Position numbers and translations under genes: made by a program. This document shows positions 1,525 through 56,700 of a stretch of DNA of 64,000 nt, piece by piece. Each line of letters starts with the position of its first letter. Within the stretch, counting starts at the first letter, position 1. Under the pieces are notes generated by a model, which saw only the letters and a program-made list of their open reading frames with translations, was not told the origin of the DNA and did not search any database. The stretch spans positions 44,607 to 108,606 of the forward strand of contig JAQBQS010000003.1 of NCBI GenBank assembly GCA_028286885.1, read 5' to 3'. Source of the stretch: Patescibacteria group bacterium. Its GTDB lineage: Bacteria; Patescibacteriota; Minisyncoccia; Phycocordibacterales; UBA1006.

Positions 1525-2547
1525 ATGGAAGTTCCTGATATTACAAATTACGAAGGTTCGGCTCCTCCCCCTGCTAAGGGGGAGGCTGGGAGGGGGTTTG
1601 AAAATACAAACCCCCTCCTAACCCTCCCCTTAGCAGGTGAGGGAACAGGACAGCCGAAATCGCGCAAACGCAGGTTTGCGTTTTTTGGCTTAGTCGCGGG
1701 ACTTGCCGCCATTGTCGTTATTTCGTTCGGAATCGCCGGACGTCCTCCCTCTGACTTTGTTCCCGAAACGGTGGTTGTTATTCCCGGCAATGCATCTACA
1801 AAATCAGCCGGCGACATTCTCGTTAAAAATCACATCATCAGGTCGAGCAGCATCTTCCAGGCCATCATCCAAACGATCCTCGGCGATCGCCCCGTCATCG
1901 CCGGACAGTTCCAGTTTGACAAACCGGTCAGCGTCCTGAAAGCCGCGCAAATCGTTACGGGCGGATCATTCGGACGTACGCAGATCAAGCTTACAATTCC
2001 CGAAGGTTCAAGCAATGCCGACATTTCAAAAATCGTTCTCAAGCAGATTCCGGATTTCAATGAGAAAACATTTCTCAAGAATTCAGGACCATTCCAAGGA
2101 AACTTGTTCCCTGAGACGTATTTAGTTTTCAAAACCATTACTCCTGACGAATTGATTGCACGAATGCGGCAGGAATTCGACAAGAAAATTTCAGCGCTCA
2201 AGTCTGATATTTCGGCATCGAGACATGATCAAGAAGACCTCGTAAATATGGCTGCCATCTTGGAGAAAGAAGCCAAGAATTCAAGTGACGCTGCGCGCAT
2301 CGCGGGAATTCTGTGGCACCGCATTGCAATCGGAATGCCGCTTCAAGTAGATGCCGCGCCTGTAACATACAAGGAAAAAGGATTTCCGAAAGTGCCGATC
2401 GGCAATCCCGGCGTTGCGATGATCAATGCGGCGATTCATCCCGTTTCATCCGACTATTTGTATTATCTGTACGACAAGAAAGGCGTGATCCATTATGCCA
2501 AGACGTACGCGGGGCATCAGGCGAACATCGAAAAATATCTGAGGTAA
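1525..2547 (+). CDS. mltG: endolytic murein transglycosylase, MltG/YceG family
   Basis: N-terminal TM (FAFFGLVAGLAAIVVISFGIAG) plus the C-terminal YceG-like signature LQVDAAPVTY...PIGNPGVAMINAAIHP. ATG at 1525 chosen; the ORF opens at 1474 but that would overlap the upstream gene. Confidence 0.7.
   Translation: MEVPDITNYEGSAPPPAKGEAGRGFENTNPLLTLPLAGEGTGQPKSRKRRFAFFGLVAGLAAIVVISFGIAGRPPSDFVPETVVVIPGNASTKSAGDILVKNHIIRSSSIFQAIIQTILGDRPVIAGQFQFDKPVSVLKAAQIVTGGSFGRTQIKLTIPEGSSNADISKIVLKQIPDFNEKTFLKNSGPFQGNLFPETYLVFKTITPDELIARMRQEFDKKISALKSDISASRHDQEDLVNMAAILEKEAKNSSDAARIAGILWHRIAIGMPLQVDAAPVTYKEKGFPKVPIGNPGVAMINAAIHPVSSDYLYYLYDKKGVIHYAKTYAGHQANIEKYLR
1556..1641. repeat. GC-rich nested palindromic element (~86 bp) lying in-frame inside the mltG N-terminal coding region
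   Basis: CCTCCCCCTGCTAAGGGGGAGGCTGGGAGGGGGTTT-(loop)-AAACCCCCTCCTAACCCTCCCCTTAGCAGGTGAGGG. The arms are near-perfect reverse complements and far more GC-rich than the flanks. The terminal CCTCACC resembles the DUF559-element termini. Confidence 0.6.
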
Positions 2548-2594
2548 TCCTCGGATTTTTTGTTTTAAAAATTCCGTGCTACGATGTCATCCAT

Positions 2595-3134
2595 ATGAAG
2601 GAAAAGAAACTCGCGTTTATCGACCTCGAAACGACCGGATTTGATCCGTTGACGCAGGAAGTCATCGAGATCGGCTGCCTCTTCGCAAAATTAAACGAGA
2701 ATGGAATTTACGAGGAGCTCGACTCATTCGAGCTCAAGGTGAAGCCGGAACACATTGAAACAGCGGACCGCGAGGCGCTCCGCATCAACCGCTACAGCGA
2801 CGAGGACTGGTTGTTTGCTCACACCCAGAAGGAAGCCTTCACAATGCTCGCGCAGAAATGCGAAGGATGCGTTCTGGTTGCGCAAAACACGCCGTTTGAC
2901 TACGGATTTCTGCAGGCCGGATTCTCGCGAAACGGCCTAAAAGATCCGTTCTTCTTTGCAAAGCTCGATACCATCTCGCTCGCATATTTACGATTTAGGA
3001 AGGATCCCGAGATGAACAACTTTTCGCTCAAGGCGCTTTGCGAGAGATACGGAATCAAGAATGAGAAAGCGCACAGCGCGCTCGCTGACATCCGCGTTAC
3101 GTTTGAGGTGTTCAAGAAATTGATGGGGCAGTAA
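2595..3134 (+). CDS. DEDDh 3'-5' exonuclease (DnaQ / DNA polymerase III epsilon-like)
   Basis: Exo I motif FIDLETTG and Exo III motif HSALADIRVTFEVF. ATG at 2595; the upstream part of the 2313 ORF overlaps mltG. Confidence 0.75.
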   Translation: MKEKKLAFIDLETTGFDPLTQEVIEIGCLFAKLNENGIYEELDSFELKVKPEHIETADREALRINRYSDEDWLFAHTQKEAFTMLAQKCEGCVLVAQNTPFDYGFLQAGFSRNGLKDPFFFAKLDTISLAYLRFRKDPEMNNFSLKALCERYGIKNEKAHSALADIRVTFEVFKKLMGQ

Positions 3135-3178
3135 GGCTCCTTTTTTTCTTGCCAAAAGTATGATAGTGTTGCCGCATG
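3134..3178 (+). promoter_or_regulatory. terminator T-run + TTCTTGCCAAAA + TATGATAGT (-10-like) + 8 nt + ATG promoter-like motif
   Basis: ctttttttcttgccaaaagtatgatagtgttgccgcATG. One of at least 6 similar instances in the window. Confidence 0.45.
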
Positions 3179-4252
3179 TTTTCATGGTTTTTGAAGAAAA
3201 ATAAAATAGGAAAAGGAAAGAAAGCCTTCGTCGGAGTTTCCGGCGGCGTCGATTCGTCCGTGTCGGCGGCGCTCTTGATCGAGCAGGGATACGACGTTGT
3301 CGGTGTTTTCATCAGGACATGGCAGCCCGATTGGATCCCGTGCACTTGGAAGGACGAGCGGCGAGATGCAATGCGCGTATGCGCTCACTTGAACATTCCG
3401 TTTGTTGAACTTGATTTGGAACAAGAATACAAGAAAGGCGTTGCCGACTATATGATCGCTGAATATAAATCAGGCCGTACGCCGAATCCCGATGTCATGT
3501 GCAACCGTGAGGTAAAGTTCGGAGGATTTTTGAACTGGGCGCTCGAGCATGGAGCAGATCATGTCGCGACAGGTCACTATGCAAGAAACGATGGTCAATT
3601 GATGAAGGGAGTTGATCCGTCAAAAGACCAGTCCTATTTTTTGTGGATGCTCACAAAAGAGCAGCTTTCAAAAATTCTGTTTCCCATCGGCCATCTTGAA
3701 AAATCAGATGTGCGAAAACTTGCTGAAAAATTCAAGTTGCCCACAGCGACCAAAAAAGATTCACAAGGGATCTGCTTCATCGGTGAAATCGATATGAAGG
3801 AATTCTTGAGACATTATATTGACATAAATCCCGGAGATGTTTTGAATATCGACGGAGAAAAAATAGGAACGCACGATGGTTCATTGTTTTACACTCTCGG
3901 AGAAAGGCACGGTTTCGTCATTTCTAAAAAAACGACGCGCGACATGCCGTACTATGTCGTCGAAAAAAATATCGACAAGAATACGATTACCGTATCTCAG
4001 GACCCCGCAAGCTTTGAGAATTCGACTGATGTTATCTTGCGTGATTGCGTATGGCGAGAAAAAATAATTTCCGATAAAAAATACGATGCCCAAATCCGCT
4101 ATCACGGGCATTTAAAGCCAGGTATTCTTGTTCAAGGAGTACAAGGGGAATGGATCGTACATTTTGATGAGTCAGATTTCTCGCTTTCACCGGGACAATC
4201 GGTTGTCGTGTATGACGGCGATGTTTGCGTCGGCGGGGGAATCGTGAAATAA
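3176..4252 (+). CDS. mnmA: tRNA-specific 2-thiouridylase MnmA
   Basis: PP-loop SGGVDSS plus conserved MnmA blocks (IRTWQPDW..., NPDVMCN..., FLNWALEHGADHVATGHYAR). Confidence 0.85.
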   Translation: MFSWFLKKNKIGKGKKAFVGVSGGVDSSVSAALLIEQGYDVVGVFIRTWQPDWIPCTWKDERRDAMRVCAHLNIPFVELDLEQEYKKGVADYMIAEYKSGRTPNPDVMCNREVKFGGFLNWALEHGADHVATGHYARNDGQLMKGVDPSKDQSYFLWMLTKEQLSKILFPIGHLEKSDVRKLAEKFKLPTATKKDSQGICFIGEIDMKEFLRHYIDINPGDVLNIDGEKIGTHDGSLFYTLGERHGFVISKKTTRDMPYYVVEKNIDKNTITVSQDPASFENSTDVILRDCVWREKIISDKKYDAQIRYHGHLKPGILVQGVQGEWIVHFDESDFSLSPGQSVVVYDGDVCVGGGIVK

Positions 4253-4262
4253 TGCAAGAATC

Positions 4263-5333
4263 ATGCGGTTTTTTCGCGCCTTTGCAAAGACTTCTTTTGT
4301 CATTCTTGCTCTCATCGGGCTTGCCTTCGTAGGCGTGTTTGTCAGCATGCAATTCGGCTGGACGAACGTGCGCGGAACGATTGCCGAAAGGAATAATTCC
4401 TTCTTTAAGAATATTCCCAAAACTGCTTCGGCAAACAGCAATTCAAGCCAGGCAGTGATTTTGTGCAAGGTTCACGCGCTTGCGAACTTTGCCCCGCAGA
4501 CAGCGCAAAATATCGAGAATGCTTACCAGCAAACTAACGATGGCAGTCTCGCGTCTGCGATGTTTTCCGTCGCAGCGCTTCGTTTCGCGGGGACGTCGCT
4601 CCAATCAAATTTTGACATGTGCGCTACGGCAACCGTGCCGGATTTGACTCCTGTAACCCAGACGGCGTACGCATGGGCGGATTCTGCCGAGTGGGGAGTC
4701 ATGAAGTCCGCATTTGTCCGCGATCAGGATACGATCAATCGCGCGGCGCGCGATGCCGGCATCTCGCCGCGATTGCTTCTCGGAGGAATTATCGGCGAAC
4801 AGTTCCGTTTCTTCACGAGCGAGCGCGATTCGTTCAAGCAGTATTTCGAGCCGTTGAAAGTCCTCGCGTCTCTTTCGAAATTTTCATACGGAATTGCGGG
4901 ACTGAAGCCTGAAACGGCGCAGCTCATCGAAGACCACTTGCATGATTCGACCTCGGTATTTTATTTAGGGTCGGAAATGGAAAATGTCATTGCGTATCCG
5001 GACGGCTCTGATCATGACACGGTTCGATTCGACCGAATCACCGATACCAAGAATACCTACTATTCATATTTGTACGCAGGGCTTTTCATGCGCGAAGTTA
5101 CGAACCAATGGAAGGCGGCGGGGTACGATATTGCCGAGCGTCCCGATGCGCTCTCGACACTCTACAATCTCGGATTCAATCGCTCGATTCCGAAGCCCGA
5201 TCCGGCGGCGGGAGGAGCGCCGATTACGGTCAACGGACAACTTTATAATTTCGGCGACTTGGGGTACCAGTTCTATTATTCAGGGGAATTGATTCAAGAA
5301 TTTCCCTATGTTTCGAGTTCGCCTTCTCAATAA
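4263..5333 (+). CDS. hypothetical membrane-anchored/secreted protein
   Basis: 356-aa ORF with an N-terminal hydrophobic segment (FVILALIGLAFVGVFVSM). No recognisable family. Confidence 0.5.
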   Translation: MRFFRAFAKTSFVILALIGLAFVGVFVSMQFGWTNVRGTIAERNNSFFKNIPKTASANSNSSQAVILCKVHALANFAPQTAQNIENAYQQTNDGSLASAMFSVAALRFAGTSLQSNFDMCATATVPDLTPVTQTAYAWADSAEWGVMKSAFVRDQDTINRAARDAGISPRLLLGGIIGEQFRFFTSERDSFKQYFEPLKVLASLSKFSYGIAGLKPETAQLIEDHLHDSTSVFYLGSEMENVIAYPDGSDHDTVRFDRITDTKNTYYSYLYAGLFMREVTNQWKAAGYDIAERPDALSTLYNLGFNRSIPKPDPAAGGAPITVNGQLYNFGDLGYQFYYSGELIQEFPYVSSSPSQ

Positions 5334-5403
5334 AAAATAAAAAAGATTTTTGTTATCCACAAAAATCTTTTTTTGTTGCAACTTCGTGCTGTATACTTGT
5401 CGC

Positions 5404-5955
5404 ATGAATATCAGCTCTTTCGTTATGCAGACATTTGATGCACCATTTCTTCTTATCATGGCCAAGCTCGCAGTCGCGATGCTCTTGGGGCTTGTCCTCG
5501 GACTCGAGCGCGTCTATGCGCACAAGACGGCCGGAATGCGAACGTACGCGCTCGTCGCGCTCGCTTCCGCCGCGTTCATAACGGTGTCAGTATTTATCGG
5601 AGACCATTTCATGCAGTTTGCCGCGGGTTTCAATCCGGCATTTATCGCAGGCGAGATTGTTGTCGGTGTCGGATTCCTCGGAGCGGGACTTATCATCTTC
5701 AAAGACGGGCATATTGAAAACCTGACAACGGCAGGAGGACTTTGGATCTGTGCCGGCATCGGCATGATGTGCGGATTCGGCATGATCAGAGAGGCTATCT
5801 TTACCGGAGTTCTCACATTTTTCGTCATGGGAGTCCTGTCGGTTGTCGAGCGCAGAATCCGCCTTCATTATTTCCCGGATCCGGTATTTGAAGCCGCGCT
5901 CATCGCCGAGAAAAAGCCCCGCAAAAAGCGAGTTGTAAAAGTTCCTGTGCAATAG
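5404..5955 (+). CDS. MgtC/SapB-family membrane protein
   Basis: MAKLAVAMLLGLVLGLERVYAHKTAGMRTYALVALASAAF is the typical MgtC N-terminal block. A terminator hairpin and a TATACT box lie upstream. Confidence 0.7.
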   Translation: MNISSFVMQTFDAPFLLIMAKLAVAMLLGLVLGLERVYAHKTAGMRTYALVALASAAFITVSVFIGDHFMQFAAGFNPAFIAGEIVVGVGFLGAGLIIFKDGHIENLTTAGGLWICAGIGMMCGFGMIREAIFTGVLTFFVMGVLSVVERRIRLHYFPDPVFEAALIAEKKPRKKRVVKVPVQ

Positions 5956-5997
5956 TACACTTTATCCGTTAGCAATTAATAATTTTTCATAATACTC

Positions 5998-6420
5998 ATG
6001 TCTATTTTCCTTTTGACGCTCATCGCAGCCGTCGTTTCACAGATCCTTTCAGCAATCTGGTACATGTCGCTCTTCGGCAAGAAGTGGGGTATGGCTATCG
6101 GACACCCAATGCCTACTACAGAGGACAAGAAGATGGGAATAAAGCAGATGGCATGGCCTCTTGTTATCGGATTCGTAGGGCATCTCCTCGCGGCATTCGT
6201 AACGTTCCTGATCCTTGCCGGATTCGGAGCCAACACCATCGGGCAGGCCCTCATTACTGTCGCCGTTCTCTTTGTCGGATTCTCAATTCCTCAGGTTGCC
6301 GGCGCAGTCATGTGGAAGGGATTCACGACCAAGCAGCAGTGGATGCAGTTCGGCATCACGATCGGATTCCAGGCAATCAACTTTGTGGTCTGGGCGCTCA
6401 TCTTCGTTTGGCTCGTATAA
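5998..6420 (+). CDS. small polytopic membrane protein (DUF1761-like)
   Basis: 140 aa with 4 predicted TM helices. N-terminus SQILSAIWYMSLFGKKW resembles the DUF1761 family. Confidence 0.45.
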   Translation: MSIFLLTLIAAVVSQILSAIWYMSLFGKKWGMAIGHPMPTTEDKKMGIKQMAWPLVIGFVGHLLAAFVTFLILAGFGANTIGQALITVAVLFVGFSIPQVAGAVMWKGFTTKQQWMQFGITIGFQAINFVVWALIFVWLV

Positions 6421-6430
6421 TATTTCAAGA

Positions 6431-6455
6431 AAGCAGGCCGCAAGGCTTGCTTTTT
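6431..6455 (+). terminator. intrinsic terminator
   Basis: aagcaggccgcaaggcttgcttttt hairpin followed by a T-run. Confidence 0.6.
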
Positions 6456-6518
6456 GCATGTAAATAATGTTAAATCATGGCAAATAATTCCATAATAAAG
6501 CGATTAAAAATATAAAAC

Positions 6519-7055
6519 ATGAGCGAAGAAAAAGTTCCCATATTCTCTTGGGAAGAATTTCTCAAGAATGTCAGGTTGCAAGCCGAATCTTTAGCGATCG
6601 ACATACGGCACGATCCTCATTTGGCTCCGTACTATCTATTTGCAGAGTTTCATCGCAGGTATCCTCAGCAGATAGAATTTACGAAAAATCATTCCGTTGA
6701 TTGCGCCATGATTCATCTCTTTCCCGATTTGAATTATTCGATCGATGGCGTTCCTCAAGGTTGGCTCCGCGTCTCGCGCCATGGCGAGAAAAGCTCGACG
6801 TTGGAGTTTTTTTCGAGAGGGAGGCCCGGAGATGGCATTCAGGATTCTCTTTCAATCAGCTTGGTTGCAGGATTTTTCAAAGAAAACGCAATGACTCATA
6901 ATGAAAAGCCAGGAAAGCCGTCGCTTCGATTCCAAATTCATGACGAGGATGCGCCGCTTAATCTGGACGATGAAATGCTGCTCAAGCATGTTCGCATACC
7001 GTTTCGTCTGGTAAATGAAATGATGGATATTTTCGGAGGATTGTTTAAAAAGTGA
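6519..7055 (+). CDS. hypothetical protein
   Basis: 178-aa ORF with its own upstream terminator. No family recognised. Confidence 0.45.
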   Translation: MSEEKVPIFSWEEFLKNVRLQAESLAIDIRHDPHLAPYYLFAEFHRRYPQQIEFTKNHSVDCAMIHLFPDLNYSIDGVPQGWLRVSRHGEKSSTLEFFSRGRPGDGIQDSLSISLVAGFFKENAMTHNEKPGKPSLRFQIHDEDAPLNLDDEMLLKHVRIPFRLVNEMMDIFGGLFKK

Positions 7056-7061
7056 AACAAG

Positions 7062-7088
7062 TCAGGCGGGCGCAAGCCTGCTTTTTTT
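7062..7088 (+). terminator. intrinsic terminator
   Basis: aggcgggcgcaagcctgc plus TTTTTTT. Confidence 0.65.
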
Positions 7089-7118
7089 CTTGCCAAAAAC
7101 TGCTATAGTTTCCGCATG
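7080..7118 (+). promoter_or_regulatory. TTCTTGCCAAAA-TGCTATAGT-N6-ATG promoter-like motif (possible leaderless start)
   Basis: tttttttcttgccaaaaactgctatagtttccgcATG. An extended -10 TGcTATAGT ends 6 nt before the pepF ATG. Confidence 0.5.
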
Positions 7119-8891
7119 AAAACGACATGGAATCTGGAACTCTTATATAAATCTCCCGAAGATCCGCAGATTGAAAAGGACATCAAGCTGATTGTTTCGG
7201 CGTGCAAGAAATTCGAGAAGAAGTGGAAAGGGACGAATGCATATTTCAAAAGCGATAAAATTCTGGCGGAAGCGCTTAAAGATTACGCAAAGCTGTATGA
7301 AACGATCGGGCAGCAGAAGCCGAGTCAGTATTTTCACCTTTTAAACGATACTCAATTGAATCATCCGACCGCGAAGGCGCGCCTGATGCAGATCGAGCAG
7401 TCCATGACGGAAGCCTGGAACCGGATTATTTTCTTCGACCTGGAGCTTGCGAAAATTCCACCAAAGGACCAGAAGAAATTTTTAAGCAGCGCCATTTTAA
7501 AACAATACCGTTATCATCTTGAAAAAATATTCAAGTCTGCGAAGTATGAGCTTTCTGAATCCGAACAAAAGATTTTAAATCTCACTGAACAGACAAGTTA
7601 CGAAATATGGACAAGCGGTGTAAAAAAGATGCTGTCAGAGCAGAAAATTCTGTTTGGAGGCAAGGAAATGGGAATGAGCGAAGCGGCAGGAATCAGCCCT
7701 TCGCTTCCGCGAGAAGATCGTGAAAATATTTACAATCAAATCATTGAAGCTACAAAACGGGTTGCTCCGTTTGCGGAAAGCGAGATGAACGCCGTACTGA
7801 CAATCAAGAAAATAAAAGACGATCTCAAGGGGTATAAGCATCCTTACTCGTCATCAATTCTTTCAAAACAAAATGATGAAAAGGCGATCATTCGGTTTTC
7901 AAAAATCGTGACAAATCACTTTCCGATCGCTCATCGTTTTTACGCATTGAAGAAAAAAATGCTCGGCATGAAGGAACCGATGAGGATATTTGATGTCAGT
8001 GCCGACCCTGGAAAAGTAAGCAGAAAGTTTTCATTCGACGAGTCGGTGAAAATTGTCAGGGCGGCCTTCGCTTCGATAGATCCCCAATTCGTGGAGGTGT
8101 TTGATTCCTTCTTGCAAAACGGTCAGATCGACGCTTTTCCGAGGTTGAATAAAAGGGCTGGCGGGTACTGCGCGAGCAGCCACGGATTGCCGACATTTAT
8201 TCTATTGAACCATACTGAAAATTTTGATTCCGTAAGAACCTTGGCGCACGAAATGGGACACGCGTTCCATGCGGAATTTTCAAGAAGCCAGCCGGCATTC
8301 TACGAATCATGTACGCTTTCCACCGCTGAAGTCGCCAGCACTTTCTTCGAGAATGTGGCGTTCGACAAAATATTCGAAACTCTTTCGGAAGAAGAAAAAA
8401 TAATCGCTCTTCATGACAAGGTATCAAGCAGTCTCGCTTCGGTATTCTTGCAGATTGCCGGATTCAATTTTGAAGTCGAGCTGCATGAGACGCTGCGCAA
8501 AGAAGGATTTGTTTCAAAAGAAAAAATGTCCGAATTGATGCTCAAGCATCGCGCATCGTATTTCGGTTCCGCTGCAAAACTCGATCGGGACGACGGTCTA
8601 CTCTGGGTCAGATGGCAGCATATGCGCTATTATTTCTATGTCTACACCTACGCTTACGGCGAGCTCATCTCGAGCGCCATGTATGCCAAATACAAAGAGG
8701 ACAAGTCATTCGTCAAGAAACTGAAACAGTTCCTGTCCGCGGGAGGTTCCGATACGCCTGAAAACATTTTCAAGTCGATTGGTATCGATACTACGAAAGA
8801 TGAGTTCTGGATTGCTGGAATAAAGAATATTGAAGCAGATGTTATCAAACTTGAAAAACTGGTGAACAAGAATACAAAGAAAAATAAATAA
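7116..8891 (+). CDS. pepF: oligoendopeptidase F (M3B family)
   Basis: HEXXH zinc motif in TLAHEMGHAFH, plus length and conserved M3B blocks. Confidence 0.85.
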   Translation: MKTTWNLELLYKSPEDPQIEKDIKLIVSACKKFEKKWKGTNAYFKSDKILAEALKDYAKLYETIGQQKPSQYFHLLNDTQLNHPTAKARLMQIEQSMTEAWNRIIFFDLELAKIPPKDQKKFLSSAILKQYRYHLEKIFKSAKYELSESEQKILNLTEQTSYEIWTSGVKKMLSEQKILFGGKEMGMSEAAGISPSLPREDRENIYNQIIEATKRVAPFAESEMNAVLTIKKIKDDLKGYKHPYSSSILSKQNDEKAIIRFSKIVTNHFPIAHRFYALKKKMLGMKEPMRIFDVSADPGKVSRKFSFDESVKIVRAAFASIDPQFVEVFDSFLQNGQIDAFPRLNKRAGGYCASSHGLPTFILLNHTENFDSVRTLAHEMGHAFHAEFSRSQPAFYESCTLSTAEVASTFFENVAFDKIFETLSEEEKIIALHDKVSSSLASVFLQIAGFNFEVELHETLRKEGFVSKEKMSELMLKHRASYFGSAAKLDRDDGLLWVRWQHMRYYFYVYTYAYGELISSAMYAKYKEDKSFVKKLKQFLSAGGSDTPENIFKSIGIDTTKDEFWIAGIKNIEADVIKLEKLVNKNTKKNK

Positions 8892-25656: not shown

Positions 25657-26193
25657 CTACTTGTCAAACATTTGAACCAAACTTTTCTCCGTCTCCTCGT
25701 CAATCGAATCCGTCACGATTACCATCATCTCGGTTGTGAGCCCCAAATCCTTTTTGATATTCATGAACATATGCTCAAACGGAAACGGAGAAATCCAAGC
25801 TGAATTCTTGAGCATGACAAAGCCGGCTTTTTTCAAAAGATAGCGCAAAGATTCTCGTTCATTTTTTCGAGACTCCGGAAGGTCGAGCATGACGATCCGC
25901 CATTTGCCGTCCCAGTTGGGGACGAGGGAATCCGCGGCCTCCAATTTCTGGCTGACGGCCTTTCGGCGGCCGACAGTGGTTAGTCGGGCATAGTCGTTTT
26001 GGCCCGAGAAATGGCTCTCTACCAGTCCCGATTCGCGCAGGTTGCGAAGTGACCGAGCCAGGGCATAGCGCTCCTTGGGAGCCAGTTTTGAGCCTTCAGA
26101 ACCTATTTTGCCTTCGAGTTCAGGCACCGAAATAGCCTTGTTTTCGGCAAGGATTTTAAGGATCTTTTTTGAATAGTCGGGTTTGCTTGGCAT
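25657..26193 (-). CDS. PaaX-family winged-helix transcriptional regulator
   Basis: N-terminal wHTH plus C-terminal WDGKWRIVMLDLPESRKNERESLRYLLKKAGFVMLKNSAWISP, resembling the PaaX C-terminal domain. Confidence 0.55.
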   Translation of the reverse strand: MPSKPDYSKKILKILAENKAISVPELEGKIGSEGSKLAPKERYALARSLRNLRESGLVESHFSGQNDYARLTTVGRRKAVSQKLEAADSLVPNWDGKWRIVMLDLPESRKNERESLRYLLKKAGFVMLKNSAWISPFPFEHMFMNIKKDLGLTTEMMVIVTDSIDEETEKSLVQMFDK

Positions 26194-26426
26194 AATGAAA
26201 TTATCTTTATTTTACATCTATTTTATGATAGTATTCTCCTAATGCGAAATAATGCAGATTTGTTCTTTGGTCCTGAAAAATAGAACGATCCAATCTCATA
26301 AATAAAGGTTTTGTGATGGATCACAAGAAGGCGTAACCGGAAGGGCGTCTTTTTTATTTGACTTTGAAGCAAAAATGGAATATCTTTGGATTAGTCAAAG
26401 TGTGCTGTCCGGGTATCACTGGGCGA

Positions 26427-26700
26427 ATCGGCAATCCTACGGGTTGCTGATTTTTTTCTTGACATAGGAACTTGTTATGCTATAATTCAAATGTGTTTTT
26501 TCTACTTCCAGTATTCGGTAGGCGCGTACTGGCGGGGATCGGCGTTCGCAAGAATGCCGGTTTTTTTATTGACGAGAACCCCGATAACTGCTAAATTAGC
26601 TGTCCATAGTTCCAAGTTGCCTGCCCTGAAGGCGACAAGCGGTGTCCTGCAAAGGATGCCGCTTTTTTTCTTGACATAGAAAAACGATATCACTATAATG
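26427..26700 (+). promoter_or_regulatory. array of three tandem terminator-promoter units
   Basis: Hairpin/T-run terminators at 26430..26456, 26541..26567 and 26641..26669. Each is followed by a promoter: TTGACA-16-TATAAT (26458..26485), TTGACG-17-TAAATT (26569..26597) and TTGACA-17-TATAAT (26671..26699). Units 1 and 3 are near-identical. Confidence 0.5.
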
Positions 26701-26807
26701 GCCTTTGTACAAGGTTTTCGCGATCGCGGAAGACTTGTTGAAATCTTGAAAATTACTTTATTTTTAAATTATTTGGAATTTATTAACTTTTAATTGAACC
26801 TTAAAAA

Positions 26808-27359
26808 ATGGAACAAAAATCAGCATTGCTTGTCATGGATATGCAAATGGGAATCCTTGGTAATTATCTCGATGCTGATGAATTGTTGGATCGCGTATCG
26901 GTTGCCATTGAAAAAGCGCGGACGAAAGGCATTCCGGTCATGTACGTGCATTTGGGATTTCGTCCCGGCGGTCCGGAACTGAATCCGGAAAATAGATTCT
27001 TCCAGCGTTTCAAGCGGGAAGAATTTACTCCGGCATTCATGGAGCGGTTCATGCAGATCCATCCCAAGATCGCGCCAAAGGATGGCGACATCATAATTGA
27101 AAAACGCCGCGTGTCGGCATTCTCGGGAAGCGATTTGGAAGTCATCCTTCGAGCGCAGGGAATCAAGCATCTGATCCTTTCAGGAATTTCTACGTCCGGC
27201 GTCGTCCTCTCGACGACGCGCGAGGCGGCTGACAAGGATTACAAGATCACAATCTTGTCGGATTGCTGCGCCGATAGCGACAAGGAAGTTCATGAAGTTC
27301 TGTTAGAAAAAGTGTTGAACCGGCAGGCGGAAGTGGTGAGGGTAGAGGATTGGAAATAA
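26808..27359 (+). CDS. isochorismatase-family cysteine hydrolase
   Basis: N-terminal ALLVMDMQ block and a conserved C-terminal segment (HLILSGISTSGVVLSTTREAAD) typical of the isochorismatase fold. Confidence 0.7.
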   Translation: MEQKSALLVMDMQMGILGNYLDADELLDRVSVAIEKARTKGIPVMYVHLGFRPGGPELNPENRFFQRFKREEFTPAFMERFMQIHPKIAPKDGDIIIEKRRVSAFSGSDLEVILRAQGIKHLILSGISTSGVVLSTTREAADKDYKITILSDCCADSDKEVHEVLLEKVLNRQAEVVRVEDWK

Positions 27360-27363
27360 TCAT

Positions 27364-27819
27364 ATGTACTCTCCATTAGAACAAAAACCGAAAGTACTTG
27401 AACTAATTGGATTATTCATTGTACTTTTCAATGGAATTGATAGTAGGTTAGGAACAGAATTCTATTGGATACTAGATCAAACAGATCGAAAGAAAAGACC
27501 AATTTTAGATTTTCTAGAAACTCAGCAAACGTCTTCTAAAATTGAAATTTTGAAGGAAATTCTCGGTCCTGATCTCTATAAAGAATTAGGAGAATTAAAT
27601 AAATTTAGAAATCAACTGTGTCACGGAATGTATGGAGTGAATCTTGCTACAGGAGAAATTTCAAATACCAAAAGACTAAAGAAACCAGCAAAAAAGTCTA
27701 AAACTCCATATTTTAAAATAGAATCTATAAATGAAAAGATTCTTGAAAAATATATTGAAAGGGAAAGGTCTGTTTTGCAGGAATTTTATAAGCTGGCGCT
27801 GTCGAGATTACCAAAATAA
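27364..27819 (+). CDS. hypothetical protein with a possible HEPN-like Rx4H motif, in an AT-rich insert
   Basis: ~30% GC versus ~48% in the flanks. NKFRNQLCHG fits the HEPN Rx4-6H signature. Only 4 nt after the isochorismatase stop. Confidence 0.4.
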   Translation: MYSPLEQKPKVLELIGLFIVLFNGIDSRLGTEFYWILDQTDRKKRPILDFLETQQTSSKIEILKEILGPDLYKELGELNKFRNQLCHGMYGVNLATGEISNTKRLKKPAKKSKTPYFKIESINEKILEKYIERERSVLQEFYKLALSRLPK

Positions 27820-27831
27820 TTTTTTTAGTTT

Positions 27832-28251
27832 ATGCCTAATGAAAACTGGAAGTCCTTAGAGGATCAATTAGGAAATCTTAATAATCAAGTTGATGATATT
27901 AAAGATATTCTTAAATCTACAAAAAGTTCGAATGAAAGTGATTTGAAAGAAATCAATAAAAATTCTGAAAAAATAAGAGACATTAATTCTGAATTGTCTG
28001 AATTAAACAGAAATGTAGAAAAAATAAAAGACGAGATTGCATCTCAAAATAAATCAGGTGTTGATTACCAATTAGATGAGTTAGAAAGAATAAATAAAAA
28101 TGTTGAGAGTATTAAAGATATAGCAGAACATCAAATACTTTCTAAAATCAATCAGCATTTAGCCGCAACAAGGAAGATTGTTAATTTGTTGATACCAATT
28201 TTTATTGTACTAGTTGCAATTTTGGTAGAACTAATCAAACTTACAAATTAA
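27832..28251 (+). CDS. coiled-coil protein with C-terminal TM anchor, in the AT-rich insert
   Basis: Repetitive heptad-like sequence (NLNNQVDDIKDILK..., ELNRNVEKIKDEI..., INKNVESIKDIAE...) ending in the TM LLIPIFIVLVAILVELI. Confidence 0.4.
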   Translation: MPNENWKSLEDQLGNLNNQVDDIKDILKSTKSSNESDLKEINKNSEKIRDINSELSELNRNVEKIKDEIASQNKSGVDYQLDELERINKNVESIKDIAEHQILSKINQHLAATRKIVNLLIPIFIVLVAILVELIKLTN

Positions 28252-28264
28252 TTTTTAAAATCAT

Positions 28265-30148
28265 ATGTCAAAAATCATTGGTATCGATCTCGGTACAACA
28301 AACAGCGCTGTCGCCATCATCGAGGGCGGACAGCCGAAAATTATAGAAAACGTTGAGGGAGCGAGAACGACTCCAAGTATTGTCGCGCTTGCGAAAAATG
28401 GAGACCGATTGGTCGGAGCCTTGGCGAAGCGCCAGGCGGTGACGAATCCGGAAAACACGATCTTCGGAATCAAGCGCTACATGGGACACAAGTTCAATGA
28501 CGAGGTCGTGAAAAAAGACCTCGCTCATTCGCCGTTCAAAATTTCATCAGGCGCTGACAACGGCGTGTCCGTAAAATTCGGCGACAAGGAATATCGACCG
28601 GAAGAAATCTCGGCGATGATCCTTGCAAAAATCAAGGCTGATGTCGAGGCGAAACTCGGCGAAACGATCACAGAGGCTGTCATTACAGTCCCTGCGTATT
28701 TCGACGACTCACAGCGACAGGCAACGGTCAACGCAGGTAAAATTGCGGGACTTGATGTAAAGCGAATCATCAACGAGCCGACAGCGGCCGCACTTGCGTA
28801 CGGATTTAATTCCAAGAAAGAGCAGAAGATTGCAGTGTACGACTTCGGAGGAGGAACATTCGACATTTCAGTTTTGGAAGTCGGAGCTGATCTCGTAGAA
28901 GTTAAATCTACCGACGGAGATGCGCACATGGGTGGAGAAGACATCGATCGATCAATCATCGAATGGATTGCAACTGAATTCAAGAAAGAATCCGGAATTG
29001 ATGTCACCAAAGACGTCCTGGCTTTGCAGCGATTGAAAGAAGCAGCTGAAAAGACGAAACATGAATTGTCGACGTCAGTCGAGTCTGAAATCAACATTCC
29101 GTTCATCGCACAAAACGACGGAGTCCCGGCCCACTTGGTCATGAAAATGACGCGAGCGAAACTTGAGGAATTGGCTGCGCCGTTCATCGACAAGTCAATT
29201 GAAATTACAAAACGAGCGATCGAAGCATCACCGTTTAAGATCGGAGAAATCGACGAGATCATCATGGTCGGAGGACAGACGCGCATGCCGAAGATTGTCG
29301 AGGAAGTAAAGAAGCTTTTCGGAAAGGAACCTAACCGATCAATTAACCCGGACGAAGTCGTGGCACTTGGTGCTGCGGTTCAGGCTGGAGTTTTGCAGGG
29401 GGATGTCAAAGACGTACTCTTGCTCGATGTGATTCCATTGTCGCTTGGAATCGAAACGATGGGATCAGTTGCAACGAAACTGATCGAGCGAAACACGACG
29501 ATCCCAACATCAAAGTCGCAAGTATTCTCGACAGCGTCTGACAATCAGACATCGGTAGAAATCCATATCGTTCAGGGTGAGCGCCCAATGGCGGCTGATA
29601 ACAAATCACTCGGTCGGTTTACGCTTGGCGACATTGCGCCGGCTCCGCGAGGAATGCCACAAGTCGAAGTTACATTCGATATTGACGCAAACGGAATCTT
29701 GAAAGTGAAGGCACTTGATAAGGCGACGAATAAGGAGGCATCGATCACCGTCCAGTCAGGCGGGGGACTTTCAGATGCGGATGTGAAAAAGATGCAGGAA
29801 GACGCTGAAAAATACAAAGCCGAAGACGAGAAGAAAAAAGAGTTGATCGACAAGAAAAACACGGCCGACACGACAGTGTTTGGAGCGGAAAAATCGATGA
29901 AGGAATATTCTGACAAACTCGACGAGGCAACAAAGACTTCGATCAATGATGCCATTGCGAAGGTGAAGGAAGTAAAAGATGGGGAAGATGCAGATGCGAT
30001 TCATTCAGCGACAGAAAAGCTTTCCGAGGAGATGATGAAGATTTATGAGGTGATCCAGAAAGCGGGGCAGGCTGAACAGGCGGCTCCGAATGCGGAGGAA
30101 CCTTCAAACGAAGGAACAACTCCAGAAGGGGAAGGTGAGGCAAAATAA
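28265..30148 (+). CDS. dnaK: molecular chaperone DnaK (Hsp70)
   Basis: [18 protein letters not shown], and the complete ATPase, substrate-binding and lid domains. Confidence 0.95.
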
Positions 30149-30180: not shown

Positions 30181-30531
30181 TTAGATGTAAGCAGGATTGT
30201 GAAGTATTGAAGGCTCATTTCCTTCAAAATAAATAACAGGTGCGAGAATGTTCTTCATTCTTTTTACCAGGTTAGTTACTTTGTTGATAAGGATTTCTCC
30301 CAACACTCCTGAAAAGTTGTTCTTCTCCGTATCGGCGACAACAATGACCAGTTCGCAATCGAATCTGTTTTGTATGTTGCCTACCTTTACTGCGTCCTTG
30401 TTGCTTACTTCCTGAGATACTAAGTCATAGATTTCTGACATTTCTTCATTTGTGAATTTCATATATTTAGTTTTAATAGAGAAAATATAGCATATTGGCA
30501 TATATTTGTCAAGTTCACTCTTCTTTCCCAA
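30181..30531 (-). CDS. hypothetical protein
   Basis: 116-aa ORF convergent with dnaK. The start may be the internal MKFTNEEM. Confidence 0.35.
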   Translation of the reverse strand: MGKKSELDKYMPICYIFSIKTKYMKFTNEEMSEIYDLVSQEVSNKDAVKVGNIQNRFDCELVIVVADTEKNNFSGVLGEILINKVTNLVKRMKNILAPVIYFEGNEPSILHNPAYI

Positions 30532-54423: not shown

Positions 54424-56487
54424 TTACAAAGATAGAACATTTGTAAAAATGTCATCGAGGTCGGCTTTGTGGTCTGTGTGCATTGTAGAAAGGTTGTCAT
54501 TGCTACAGTAATCTACAACCTCTTGCAGTCCCTTACTAGGAAATTGTAGATAGGTTTCAATTGCTCCGTATGAGAGGACAAAAACCCTTATTGCTCTTAA
54601 GTTAATTATTTTTTCTTTGATTTTTAAAATCACTGCAGGATTTAAAGTAAGGACAGAGATTATTTTTGAGAAAGGTATTCGCTTTTTATATAGGAAATAC
54701 CAAATATCTTTTATTTGATTTATTTCATCCTGGCTTATAGCAGATACATCCTTATCTTTTATTTCCTGCATTGCATTGAATAAATCAGCTGTAATCTTAG
54801 TTCCTGATTGTGAGAGGGTGCTTTTGACGCGCGTTATTGTGTCGGCATCTAATCCTGACAATAAAATCTCCTCTTTGGCAGTCTCTATCCCTAAGTCAGA
54901 AAATTGCTCAAGAAAGTCAAAATCAGTTATAAATGCTGACTTTATTTTTAACTTATCTAGAAAATCAAACCATTTCTTATATTCATGCTTACCGTTTATG
55001 GAAAGAAATTCAAAATCTTCATCTGATTTACCTGCTTTATTTAGAAAATATGAATAAAAATAGTTATCAGTTTCGCCTTCAACCAAAATAACCTTATTTG
55101 TGAAGAAAATCTTTGCTGAATTTGTATAATTTAAAAATTTTATCAAATCTTCTTCAGAAGAAGTGACCACATTTCCTTGAACAATGTTTGTTGCAGAATT
55201 TTCAACATAAAACCGATAGGTGTTTTTTATTGTTTTCTCATCGATGAAAACAGGGGAATGTGTTATCAGAATTGACTGCAGGCCATAATCATTAGAAAAG
55301 CGCTTTAATAGATTGAAATATTTTTTCTGCAATTTTGGATGTAAGTGTATCTCAGGTTCATCTATAACAAGGAGTCCATTTTTTATCTCTAATCCCATTA
55401 CAAGGAAAATAAGCGAAAATATACTTTTTTGGCCACTGCTAAGTTGATTGAAATCCATAACTCGACCATTTTTAGTTGTGTATATTTCTATAACTATTGC
55501 CTTAATACTTGGCGGGGGTATTTCTCTATATCTAACTTTAAGTCCTAGATATTCATCAAGCATGTTGTTTATGTCATGCAATAAAGAGCCTGTGGCTGTA
55601 AATTGTTTGGTTATAGAATCAGGTACGCTTAAAGAGCCGTAGCTATCTTTTGCGATTTTATTTCCGACCTTAGTAAAGGGAATGTTAAAAATATGCCCTG
55701 AATCAGAACTATTTTTTATATTGACACCTTTTTGCCCATCCTCTAGATTGCCAACTTGATTCTCTTGTCCGGTATTGAAATTAATCTGTGGAGGAAAACT
55801 ACTTATGAATCTTTGAGCTCCTAAGAATTCAAACGATATTACTAGCTCGTCCCAGTTTTTTGATTCTCGCTCCGTACCGATAATGATAAGTTTCTTGAAC
55901 AAGTCGAAGTTTTTCAGATAAAAATTGACAATTTTTTGCTCATCTGTACCATCGGGTTCAAGAGAAAAGACTAACCTTGGTTGGCCATTATCAAGTTTAA
56001 ATTTGAAACTAACATTCGAGATTGTCGAAATATTTGTGGTTTCAATTGGGAACGCAGAAACATTAAGCAGCCCTTGTGCGTATTTCCTTGAGATTTCATT
56101 TATTATTGCAAAATTTGCCTTAATAAATTCTAGGTTTTTTCTATCAGATTCATTCAATTCAATTTTTAATTCAAGGTAAGAATTTTTAGTACTTGAAAGG
56201 TTGTGCTTATCAAGCCTCAAGCCATTACGAGTATTCTCCTTTTTCTTCAAATACCGAGGATTTTTGGAGCGGTCTGTGTCGTATGCGGGCTCATAATCAT
56301 ATGGCTCAACAAAGTAAATTTGGAAAAGCGTAAATAAGATTTCAACAAAATTGCTTTTCCCCGAACCGTTTGCGCCAACAATAATATTTAAAGCGTCACC
56401 GAATATAATATCTGAGGGAGAGGTATTAAAATCAGCTTTTTCTGCAAAACTTAATATATTTGAAATTTTGACCTCTTTGATTTTCAT
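54424..56487 (-). CDS. OLD-family ATP-dependent endonuclease (ABC-type ATPase + TOPRIM)
   Basis: Walker A GANGSGKSN. Walker B/D-loop LLVIDEPEIHLHPKLQ. C-terminal TOPRIM KVILVEGETDNYFY. The gene is ~30% GC, far below the genome background. Confidence 0.75.
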   Translation of the reverse strand: MKIKEVKISNILSFAEKADFNTSPSDIIFGDALNIIVGANGSGKSNFVEILFTLFQIYFVEPYDYEPAYDTDRSKNPRYLKKKENTRNGLRLDKHNLSSTKNSYLELKIELNESDRKNLEFIKANFAIINEISRKYAQGLLNVSAFPIETTNISTISNVSFKFKLDNGQPRLVFSLEPDGTDEQKIVNFYLKNFDLFKKLIIIGTERESKNWDELVISFEFLGAQRFISSFPPQINFNTGQENQVGNLEDGQKGVNIKNSSDSGHIFNIPFTKVGNKIAKDSYGSLSVPDSITKQFTATGSLLHDINNMLDEYLGLKVRYREIPPPSIKAIVIEIYTTKNGRVMDFNQLSSGQKSIFSLIFLVMGLEIKNGLLVIDEPEIHLHPKLQKKYFNLLKRFSNDYGLQSILITHSPVFIDEKTIKNTYRFYVENSATNIVQGNVVTSSEEDLIKFLNYTNSAKIFFTNKVILVEGETDNYFYSYFLNKAGKSDEDFEFLSINGKHEYKKWFDFLDKLKIKSAFITDFDFLEQFSDLGIETAKEEILLSGLDADTITRVKSTLSQSGTKITADLFNAMQEIKDKDVSAISQDEINQIKDIWYFLYKKRIPFSKIISVLTLNPAVILKIKEKIINLRAIRVFVLSYGAIETYLQFPSKGLQEVVDYCSNDNLSTMHTDHKADLDDIFTNVLSL

Positions 56488-56628
56488 ATTATTATCTATT
56501 CTACAATGTTCTTACTTTATTTAATAGGCATTTAAAATACCCCTATTCGGAAATAGTGAGTGGAATACCAAAACAGACCTTAGTGTTTAAGCTTAATAAG
56601 GAGAATATAGATGAAAAATCTCTGTCTG

Positions 56629-56700
56629 TGACCTTACGGGGAATCGAACCCCGCTTCCAGGAATGAGAATCCTGTGTCCTAGCCGATAGACGATAAGGCC
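56629..56700 (-). tRNA. tRNA-Glu (anticodon CTC)
   Basis: Minus-strand sequence GGCCTTATCGTCTATCGGCTAGGACACAGGATTCTCATTCCTGGAAGCGGGGTTCGATTCCCCGTAAGGTCA folds as a cloverleaf: acceptor GGCCTTA/TAAGGTC, anticodon stem CAGGA/TCCTG, loop TTCTCAT, T-arm CGGGG-TTCGATT-CCCCG. Architecture parallels E. coli tRNA-Glu. CCA is not encoded. Confidence 0.75.

Follow-up and report, generated by a model that had tools for sequence, protein, structure and literature searches.

The object of this study is a pair of small AT-rich genes directly upstream of dnaK in a genome assembly of a Patescibacteria group bacterium (GCA_028286885.1, contig JAQBQS010000003.1, positions 44,607 to 108,606 of the forward strand). 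This whole stretch of 64,000 nucleotides (nt) is referred to as the window, and positions are those of the window unless another locus is named. Open reading frame 1 (ORF1; 27364-27819, + strand) encodes a protein of 151 amino acids (aa) with an isoelectric point (pI) of 9.4, deposited at NCBI as MDB4983973.1, 'hypothetical protein JWM20_152', which we predict to be a stand-alone ribonuclease (RNase) of the HEPN superfamily. ORF2 (27832-28251, + strand) encodes an orphan of 139 aa and pI 5.1, a putative tail-anchored coiled-coil protein. The two genes follow an isochorismatase-family gene (26808-27359, + strand; Pfam, 7.5e-38) and precede dnaK (28265-30148, + strand), with 4 nt between the isochorismatase stop and ORF1, 12 nt between ORF1 and ORF2 and 13 nt between ORF2 and dnaK. 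The guanine-cytosine (GC) content is 0.305 for ORF1 and 0.262 for ORF2, compared with a native-like 0.493 for the isochorismatase gene, 0.488 for dnaK and 0.459 for the window; of the 78 ORFs with 130 aa or more in the 64 kb, these two have the lowest GC. Since the GC content at third codon positions (GC3) is likewise low (0.211 and 0.186 vs 0.53-0.65 for neighboring genes), the gap goes beyond amino-acid composition. An initial annotation of this DNA had described two AT-rich ORFs wedged between the isochorismatase gene and dnaK, and their coordinates, the 4-nt and 12-nt gaps and the GC values were all confirmed.

The same annotation had read the string NKFRNQLCHG in ORF1 as a HEPN Rx4-6H signature. 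We found this string at aa 79-88, where R82 is encoded by nt 27607-27609 and H87 by nt 27622-27624. The codons of the motif R82-N83-Q-L-C-H87 (27607-27624, + strand) thus include those of the predicted catalytic Arg and His. We compared 60 ORF1 relatives in one alignment (A4), in which identity to ORF1 ranges from 17 to 72% and is mostly 17-25%. G16, R82 and H87 are each conserved in 60/60 sequences, D/E26 and K/R59 in 59/60 each, N83 in 51/60 and N23 in 50/60. A survey of the superfamily by Anantharaman et al. (2013; PMC3710099) described the Rx4-6H motif as located at the C-terminal end of the penultimate helix, with a polar residue, mostly N, D or H, right after the R. In addition, an upstream acidic residue is often conserved in HEPN proteins, typically in an Ex3[KR] context (PMC3710099). 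In the AlphaFold2 model of ORF1, which was built from the 60-sequence alignment (predicted local distance difference test score, pLDDT, 94.7; predicted template modeling score, pTM, 0.87), helices span residues 9-36, 42-52, 56-62 and 64-87, followed by a three-stranded sheet (89-122) and a last helix (124-147). R82-H87 close the penultimate helix 64-87, as judged by the secondary-structure order. The ORF1 family therefore combines the invariant Rx4H motif and the mostly polar residue after R82 with the expected motif position. The conserved acidic D/E26 sits in the first long helix, and the Ex3[KR] context is found only in some members. Since residues of the catalytic type are invariant, ORF1 is predicted to be an active RNase.

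Profile searches with the members of the family mostly returned HEPN models. In Pfam, HEPN_Cthe2314 was matched by 8 members (best 0.0035) and HEPN_RiboL-PSP by 4 (best 6e-4), all of them below threshold with 17-20 bits against gathering scores of 27-28; Swt1, Apea and HepT models were matched as well. The remote member P0036, which is tied to the ORF1 profile at E = 5.2e-4 (1.84e9 proteins), reached 23.7 bits with Cas_Csm6_HEPN and thereby exceeded the curated Pfam cut-off of 23.4. Moreover, members of the family matched 25 PADLOC models, about 18 of which are HEPN-bearing (CARF_HEPN, Csx1, Csm6, Cas13b, RTasHEPN). When the family profile was compared with PDB sequences, the top two matches were Csm6 (6tug) and HepS (9oij), both aligned on the motif helix. 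The profile searches against HEPN families suggested in the initial annotation thus had a divided outcome: ORF1 itself passed no threshold, whereas its relatives gave the sub-threshold HEPN matches and the P0036 match above the cut-off. Taken together with the invariant motif at the end of the penultimate helix, the HEPN-like character proposed for ORF1 is upheld, and we consider it probable that ORF1 belongs to the HEPN superfamily.

A word-indexed search of 5.8 billion clusters recovered 7 proteins of the ORF1 family. An exhaustive hidden Markov model (HMM) search of 1.84 billion proteins yielded 34 representatives at E <= 1e-3, but P0021 among them is a spurious repeat protein. The remaining about 33 cluster representatives come mostly from Patescibacteria, and an extra branch of about 172 aa is found in Daviesbacteria and other candidate phyla. 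Judged by these sequence searches, the ORF1 family is very rare and previously unannotated.

The best matches of the family in Pfam, PADLOC and PDB sequences are the HEPN domains of Csm6/Csx1 (PF09659, Cas_Csm6_HEPN; PDB 6tug, 8pcw). In both groups the motif helix ends in R-N-x3-H ('NNLRNKVAHN' in Csm6, 'NKFRNQLCHG' in ORF1). By analogy, ORF1 is predicted to share the Csm6/Csx1-like chemistry of a metal-independent RNase that uses Arg and His (PMC3710099). However, the Csx1/Csm6 models are matched only in their C-terminal HEPN part, e.g. at profile positions 354-393 of 440, and in ORF1 a three-stranded beta-sheet separates the motif helix from the last helix. Its 151 aa are filled by the helical domain and this beta insert, and there are no CRISPR-Cas genes among the ORFs within about 4 kb. 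Because a CARF sensor domain is lacking, ORF1 stands outside the Csm6/Csx1 family.

Stand-alone HEPN proteins have been described before. HepS of the Gifsy-1 prophage is a single-protein abortive-infection system, a latent oligomeric RNase that, once activated by a phage tail-tip protein, cuts the anticodon loops of tRNAs (PMC13043305; PDB 9oij). Like HepS, ORF1 is a small single HEPN protein of mobile-element type with no dedicated partner, and the HepS motif reads 'NNIRNKYAHK'. The match between HepS and the ORF1 family has an E of 0.16-0.19 over about 25-30 residues; HepS comprises 212 aa and resides in a Salmonella prophage, whereas ORF1 comprises 151 aa and lies in a chromosomal dnaK operon. 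By analogy, HepS may be regarded as the closest working model for ORF1. The HepT/MntA systems (PMC7641770, PMC4621449; PF01934) likewise contain a HEPN toxin of about 130-150 aa with an Rx4H motif in a compact, horizontally spread cassette. Only one ORF1-family member gave a weak HepT-like match (0.027), far below threshold, and since no MNT gene is present ORF1 is not a HepT/MntA module. Cthe_2314 (PF18730) and RiboL-PSP-HEPN (PF18735) are the Pfam families matched most often by members of the ORF1 family, although ORF1 itself matches neither model. For Cthe_2314 the conserved motif was reported and no operon partner was detected (PMC3710099), and the remote members of the ORF1 family likewise stand alone. 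ORF1 is therefore best filed as a new rare family inside the known HEPN superfamily and not as a new kind of system.

The genomic contexts of the ORF1 homologs vary. The closest homolog (locus L004, 72% identity) is located directly 5' of dnaK with a 48-nt spacer, lacks ORF2 and is preceded by different AT-rich small ORFs; a 71-aa protein among the upstream genes was considered as HicB-like and had no Pfam support. The dnaK of L004 is 88% identical to the window dnaK over the N-terminal part. At the nucleotide level, window and L004 are 75% identical in ORF1 and 80% in dnaK. GC3 of ORF1 is still low in both (0.21 in the window, 0.11 in L004), which may reflect either a long stay without amelioration or several acquisitions into one slot. 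The other homolog with 72% identity, on the short contig L005 (region 1-357), lies downstream of a fragment of an NYN-domain (predicted RNase) gene (1.6e-6) and a 67-aa membrane ORF. A branch of about 50% identity sits at one end of elements carrying a relaxase (Replic_Relax, 3e-23), TraG/TrwB and UvrD, with varying membrane or unknown proteins upstream and, downstream, a GC-rich segment that is 95% identical between two contigs. This segment (in the regions 3537-4341 of L100 and 8688-9315 of L001) comprises 505 base pairs (bp) with a GC content of 0.53-0.55 and an inverted repeat; no tRNA, tmRNA or Rfam family was detected in it, and it is not present in the window. In L100 the homolog is preceded by a 185-aa protein (2513-3070) with an RNFFKH (Rx4H) string and no Pfam match. 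In another branch an acidic peptide of 39-43 aa (MDEETFE.AKENDLSLDEAE..., pI 4.05) starts 1 nt after the stop of the homolog (L006, 1470-1601; L008, 617-736). It showed a weak Spo0E-like match (0.0016) and is possibly a small inhibitor or antitoxin in that branch. The remote branch of about 172 aa consists of stand-alone genes, one of them in an island with reverse transcriptase, DUF3800, RadC, a methylase and a helicase. An MNT-type gene was found neither adjacent to ORF1 nor in any examined homolog context. In view of these contexts, we take ORF1 to be mobile accessory cargo, and any partner is not conserved.

To compare the position itself, we searched GTDB species representatives with the variable C-terminal half of DnaK and retrieved 80 dnaK loci. 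Neither ORF1 nor ORF2 nor the isochorismatase gene occurs within 10 kb of dnaK in any of the 80 related loci, and ORF1 is also missing in the closest GTDB representative among them (L009, DnaK 86% identical). The presence/absence check recommended in the initial annotation therefore showed that the pair is not conserved at this position. Together with the relaxase/TraG elements that carry ORF1 homologs, this bears out the proposal of a horizontally acquired or accessory block. With its atypical GC3, its absence from the dnaK loci and its homologs in Replic_Relax/TraG contexts, the block is a genomic islet.

The flanking regulatory region is shared with the relatives. A PaaX-like regulator gene (25657-26193, - strand; winged helix and Cas2-like PaaX_M domain, 8e-22) lies upstream, and such a gene is divergently adjacent to dnaK in 25 of the 80 loci, in 14 of these 25 with a spacer of 108-154 bp. 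The PaaX-dnaK spacer contains a conserved palindrome, CAAGTATTTCGCG-N2-CGCGAAATACTTG, with one copy in each locus, in most cases 55-122 nt ahead of dnaK; it overlaps the promoter region. In the window the corresponding operator-like palindrome CAAGGTTTTCGCGATCGCGGAAGACTTG (26710-26737) is present as a single copy, about 70 nt before the isochorismatase start and 1555 nt before dnaK. Just upstream we identified a perfect match to a sigma-70-type promoter (26671-26699, + strand; TTGACA-17-TATAAT, 12/12 matches) as the likely promoter of isochorismatase-ORF1-ORF2-dnaK; in relatives, operator and promoter serve dnaK. The PaaX-like protein and the palindrome may represent the heat-shock repressor/operator pair of this lineage, in the role of HrcA/CIRCE. 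No terminator-like site was found on the + strand from the promoter to the end of dnaK. Since the isochorismatase gene, ORF1 and ORF2 are located between the dnaK operator/promoter and dnaK with no such site, they are probably co-transcribed with dnaK, and for ORF1 co-transcription with dnaK is likewise probable. An internal promoter may also lie within the AT-rich DNA before dnaK. With respect to expression, the view that the block is not chaperone-operon content is not supported.

The slot between operator and dnaK is occupied by unrelated cargo in other loci, where the distance from operator to dnaK amounts to 963 nt (L009), 1028 nt (L016), 516 nt (L013) and 509 nt (L014). L009 carries a P-loop kinase-like gene, L016 grpE (5.5e-36) and a 118-aa AT-rich orphan (7894-8846), and L014 a 132-aa AT-rich orphan with an RINWFH string (8389-8787). 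The orphans of L014 and L016 were considered as ORF1 relatives and rejected, as they were unrelated by hhalign. In L009 the stretch between the PaaX-like gene and the operator holds an ABC transporter together with a HicA toxin module (HicA_toxin 2.9e-8, with an upstream 100-aa partner); all the L009 cargo, including the kinase-like gene, falls in the region 2599-7215. The HicA module is toxin-type cargo in the same variable region, although of unrelated fold and family and upstream of the operator. The region upstream of dnaK therefore collects toxin-type cargo.

The junctions of the block share a 10-nt direct repeat, AATCATATGT, whose left copy (27358-27367, + strand) includes the last part of the isochorismatase stop codon as well as the ORF1 start codon and whose right copy (28259-28268, + strand) covers the dnaK start codon. 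It occurs exactly twice in the 64 kb, with the copies 901 bp apart and flanking ORF1 and ORF2. A 10-mer shared by both junctions has a low chance probability (P = 0.005 by shuffling, 0.009 empirically). The sequence before dnaK reads AAATCATATG in L016 and AAAACATATG in L009, and because these contexts are near-identical to the right copy, the latter is the native dnaK start context. The repeat suggests a microhomology-mediated insertion or a duplication. A third AATCATATG at 56295, inside an OLD-family gene on the opposite strand, was dismissed as coincidence.

The region 26290-26700 (+ strand), between the PaaX-like gene and the promoter of the dnaK operon, contains three, possibly four, tandem mini transcription units. 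Each unit has a sigma-70-like promoter; its RNA measures about 65-75 nt, is unpaired at the 5' end and forms a small hairpin as well as a strong terminator hairpin followed by a U-run. With folding z-scores of -4.0, -4.0 and -5.5 they are candidate tandem small-RNA genes. They have no Rfam match and are not found in the short PaaX-dnaK spacers of relatives. A type III toxin-antitoxin system with these RNAs as the antitoxin was rejected, since the units do not repeat one another in sequence, each carries a promoter and a terminator of its own, and they are separated from ORF1 by the isochorismatase gene.

We see about an even chance that the whole of the following reading is correct: ORF1 is a stand-alone HEPN RNase and a latent toxin or abortive-infection effector, carried as mobile cargo in the dnaK slot, and ORF2 is separate from it. 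ORF1 would represent a minimal HEPN-superfamily ribonuclease of a rare family mainly found in Patescibacteria. By analogy with known HEPN RNases, it would oligomerize, and Arg82, Asn83 and His87, helped by Asp/Glu26, would form a metal-independent RNase site that cuts cellular RNA once triggered. The gene would have originated from a mobile element and settled ahead of the dnaK start, downstream of the conserved dnaK operator/promoter. Being expressed with the chaperone, the protein would need some form of restraint, be it post-translational, through poor translation or through a partner. ORF2 would be a later, separate and lineage-specific gain, at most a lineage-specific partner and not a conserved second component. 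The two ORFs and their composition, the motif conservation, the place of the operator, the absence from relatives and the mobile-element contexts are observed; RNase activity, oligomerization, a role in toxicity or defense and co-transcription are what we infer for ORF1.

Several observations weigh against this reading. ORF1 gave nothing above the curated thresholds of Pfam, NCBIfam, PADLOC and PHROGs; its best sub-threshold matches were PADLOC Csx1 (C-terminal part, E = 0.006) and Pfam 'Pim' (0.087). Every profile match of the family is limited to about 40-65 residues around the motif, and Foldseek with the high-confidence model returned no HEPN protein and no significant structure in PDB or BFVD. 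No relative of ORF1 or of its remote members was found in collections of phages, plasmids and viral contigs. The typical partners of HEPN toxins (MNT, CARF, AbiE-like) are not present. Moreover, an unrestrained toxin would hardly be expected to share a transcript with the highly expressed dnaK. Finally, the L004 ortholog at the same position, with a sequence divergence like that of dnaK, suggests long residence and not a recent transfer.

The initial annotation had treated ORF1 and ORF2 as a two-gene module, and the corresponding explanation, a toxin-antitoxin or immunity pair, comes next. Here the acidic coiled coil of ORF2 would neutralize the basic RNase or tether it to the membrane and release it upon stress or infection. 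The description of ORF2 as a coiled coil with a single transmembrane helix was borne out: its library matches in Pfam, NCBIfam, PADLOC and PHROGs are generic coiled-coil only, and a C-terminal transmembrane helix is predicted at about aa 116-137 (28177-28242, + strand; Kyte-Doolittle 19-residue maximum of 2.86 at aa 116-119). ORF2 is probably tail-anchored, because this strongly hydrophobic helix is followed by only 2 residues. Moreover, the DNA repeat family D1 and peptide pattern matches revealed a 14-residue repeat, [DE]LxxINxN[VS]ExI[KR]D, in three copies (aa 37-50, 54-67 and 83-96; 27940-28119, + strand). An open frame of 139 codons in DNA of 26% GC has a chance probability of about 3e-6, estimated from base composition; therefore ORF2 is not a chance ORF. 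A pairing is favored by the 12-nt gap, the common strand and the extreme AT-richness of both genes, by the complementary charges (pI 9.4 for ORF1, 4.85 for the cytoplasmic part of ORF2), and by the 10-nt repeat that brackets both genes as a single block. A variable neutralizing partner is conceivable too, considering the acidic peptide of L006/L008 and the small or membrane proteins that precede other homologs. However, a word-indexed search of 5.8e9 clustered proteins, the 100 fetched loci (with tblastn on 88 loci) and the phage collection yielded no ORF2 homolog, and an ORF2-like gene occurs in none of 9 ORF1-homolog contexts. The L004 ortholog keeps its dnaK-proximal place without ORF2. As the homology between window and L004 ends just after the ORF1 stop codon, ORF2 represents a clean insertion or deletion of about 440 bp. 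Besides, the remote family members stand alone, and ORF2 resembled no antitoxin family in the library scans. The two-gene module is thus not supported, and we regard a dedicated pair as unlikely; ORF2 may either partner ORF1 in this lineage only or be cargo that has nothing to do with it. Two further assignments of ORF2 were rejected: as a relative of the ORF1 family it proved unrelated on comparison, and against a GrpE substitute speak the absence of GrpE-like models among the best Pfam matches, the C-terminal membrane anchor and the different appearance of the true GrpE of L016.

Another alternative is that neither nuclease activity nor defense is involved. ORF1 would then be a non-catalytic helical protein in which RNxxxH is structural, and both ORFs would be fast-evolving AT-rich orphan cargo. 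This agrees with the Foldseek result, obtained despite a pLDDT of 94.7, with the missing match above a curated threshold and the short, motif-centered profile matches, and with the slot of the relatives holding other AT-rich orphans of no recognizable function. On the other hand, invariant R82 and H87 and nearly invariant N83 and D/E26 at such low identity are what one would expect of catalytic residues. Two independent libraries yielded mainly HEPN models below threshold, and HEPN proteins head the PDB list, unlike what a random helical protein would give, and P0036 passes the Pfam Csm6-HEPN cut-off. A non-nuclease ORF1 therefore appears quite improbable to us.

Slightly harder still to accept is a domesticated ORF1, i.e. 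a stress-operon HEPN RNase or RNA-binding protein working with the DnaK system, for example in the processing or degradation of heat-shock transcripts. It would fit the place downstream of the dnaK operator and promoter, the lack of a terminator-like site ahead of dnaK, the L004 homolog that is also immediately 5' of dnaK with a divergence similar to that of dnaK, and the grpE of L016 in the same slot. The gene is missing, however, from the 80 other related dnaK loci including that of the closest GTDB representative; other members are found on relaxase/TraG elements and accessory islands without chaperone genes. Elsewhere the slot holds unrelated orphans and a P-loop kinase-like gene, and the atypical GC3 persists. 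The least credible idea, which we mention as a speculation with little chance of being right, is that the slot is a capture site where promoterless AT-rich cassettes enter via start-codon microhomology at AATCATATGT and ride the stress-inducible dnaK promoter, which would wire a HEPN RNase to DnaK-regulon derepression, so that, if true, proteotoxic stress or phage takeover would drive a minimal-genome Patescibacterium into suicide or dormancy through RNA cleavage.

Should ORF1 be an active RNase, as the reading as a stand-alone HEPN effector implies, its family would be a compact, sensor-less Csm6/Csx1-like HEPN family of about 150 aa that Pfam, NCBIfam, PADLOC and PHROGs do not recognize. The immune and toxin repertoires of Patescibacteria are poorly charted, and the family may be useful for the annotation of defense systems. 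ORF1 also raises the question of how an episymbiont with a reduced genome would control a toxin without a dedicated antitoxin. In addition, the locus provides an example of a cargo slot in the dnaK operon that has been used again and again, and of a conserved pairing of a PaaX-like regulator with its putative operator. It is a modest addition that does not overturn current understanding, since new HEPN families and small AT-rich islets turn up routinely.

Two further low-GC regions were observed in the window. An orphan of 116 aa with a GC content of 0.35 (30181-30531, - strand) sits between dnaK and dnaJ; it has no Pfam match and was not found in any of the 80 related dnaK loci. A promoter-like site with 11/12 matches (30512-30484) falls within its 5' end, and its true start may thus be further in. 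The other region, an island with a GC content of 0.33 (54424-56487, - strand), adjoins tRNA-Glu (56628-56700) and contains a defense-type gene for a 687-aa OLD-family nuclease (AAA_21 2e-23, AAA_15 1e-19, OLD-like TOPRIM 7e-13).

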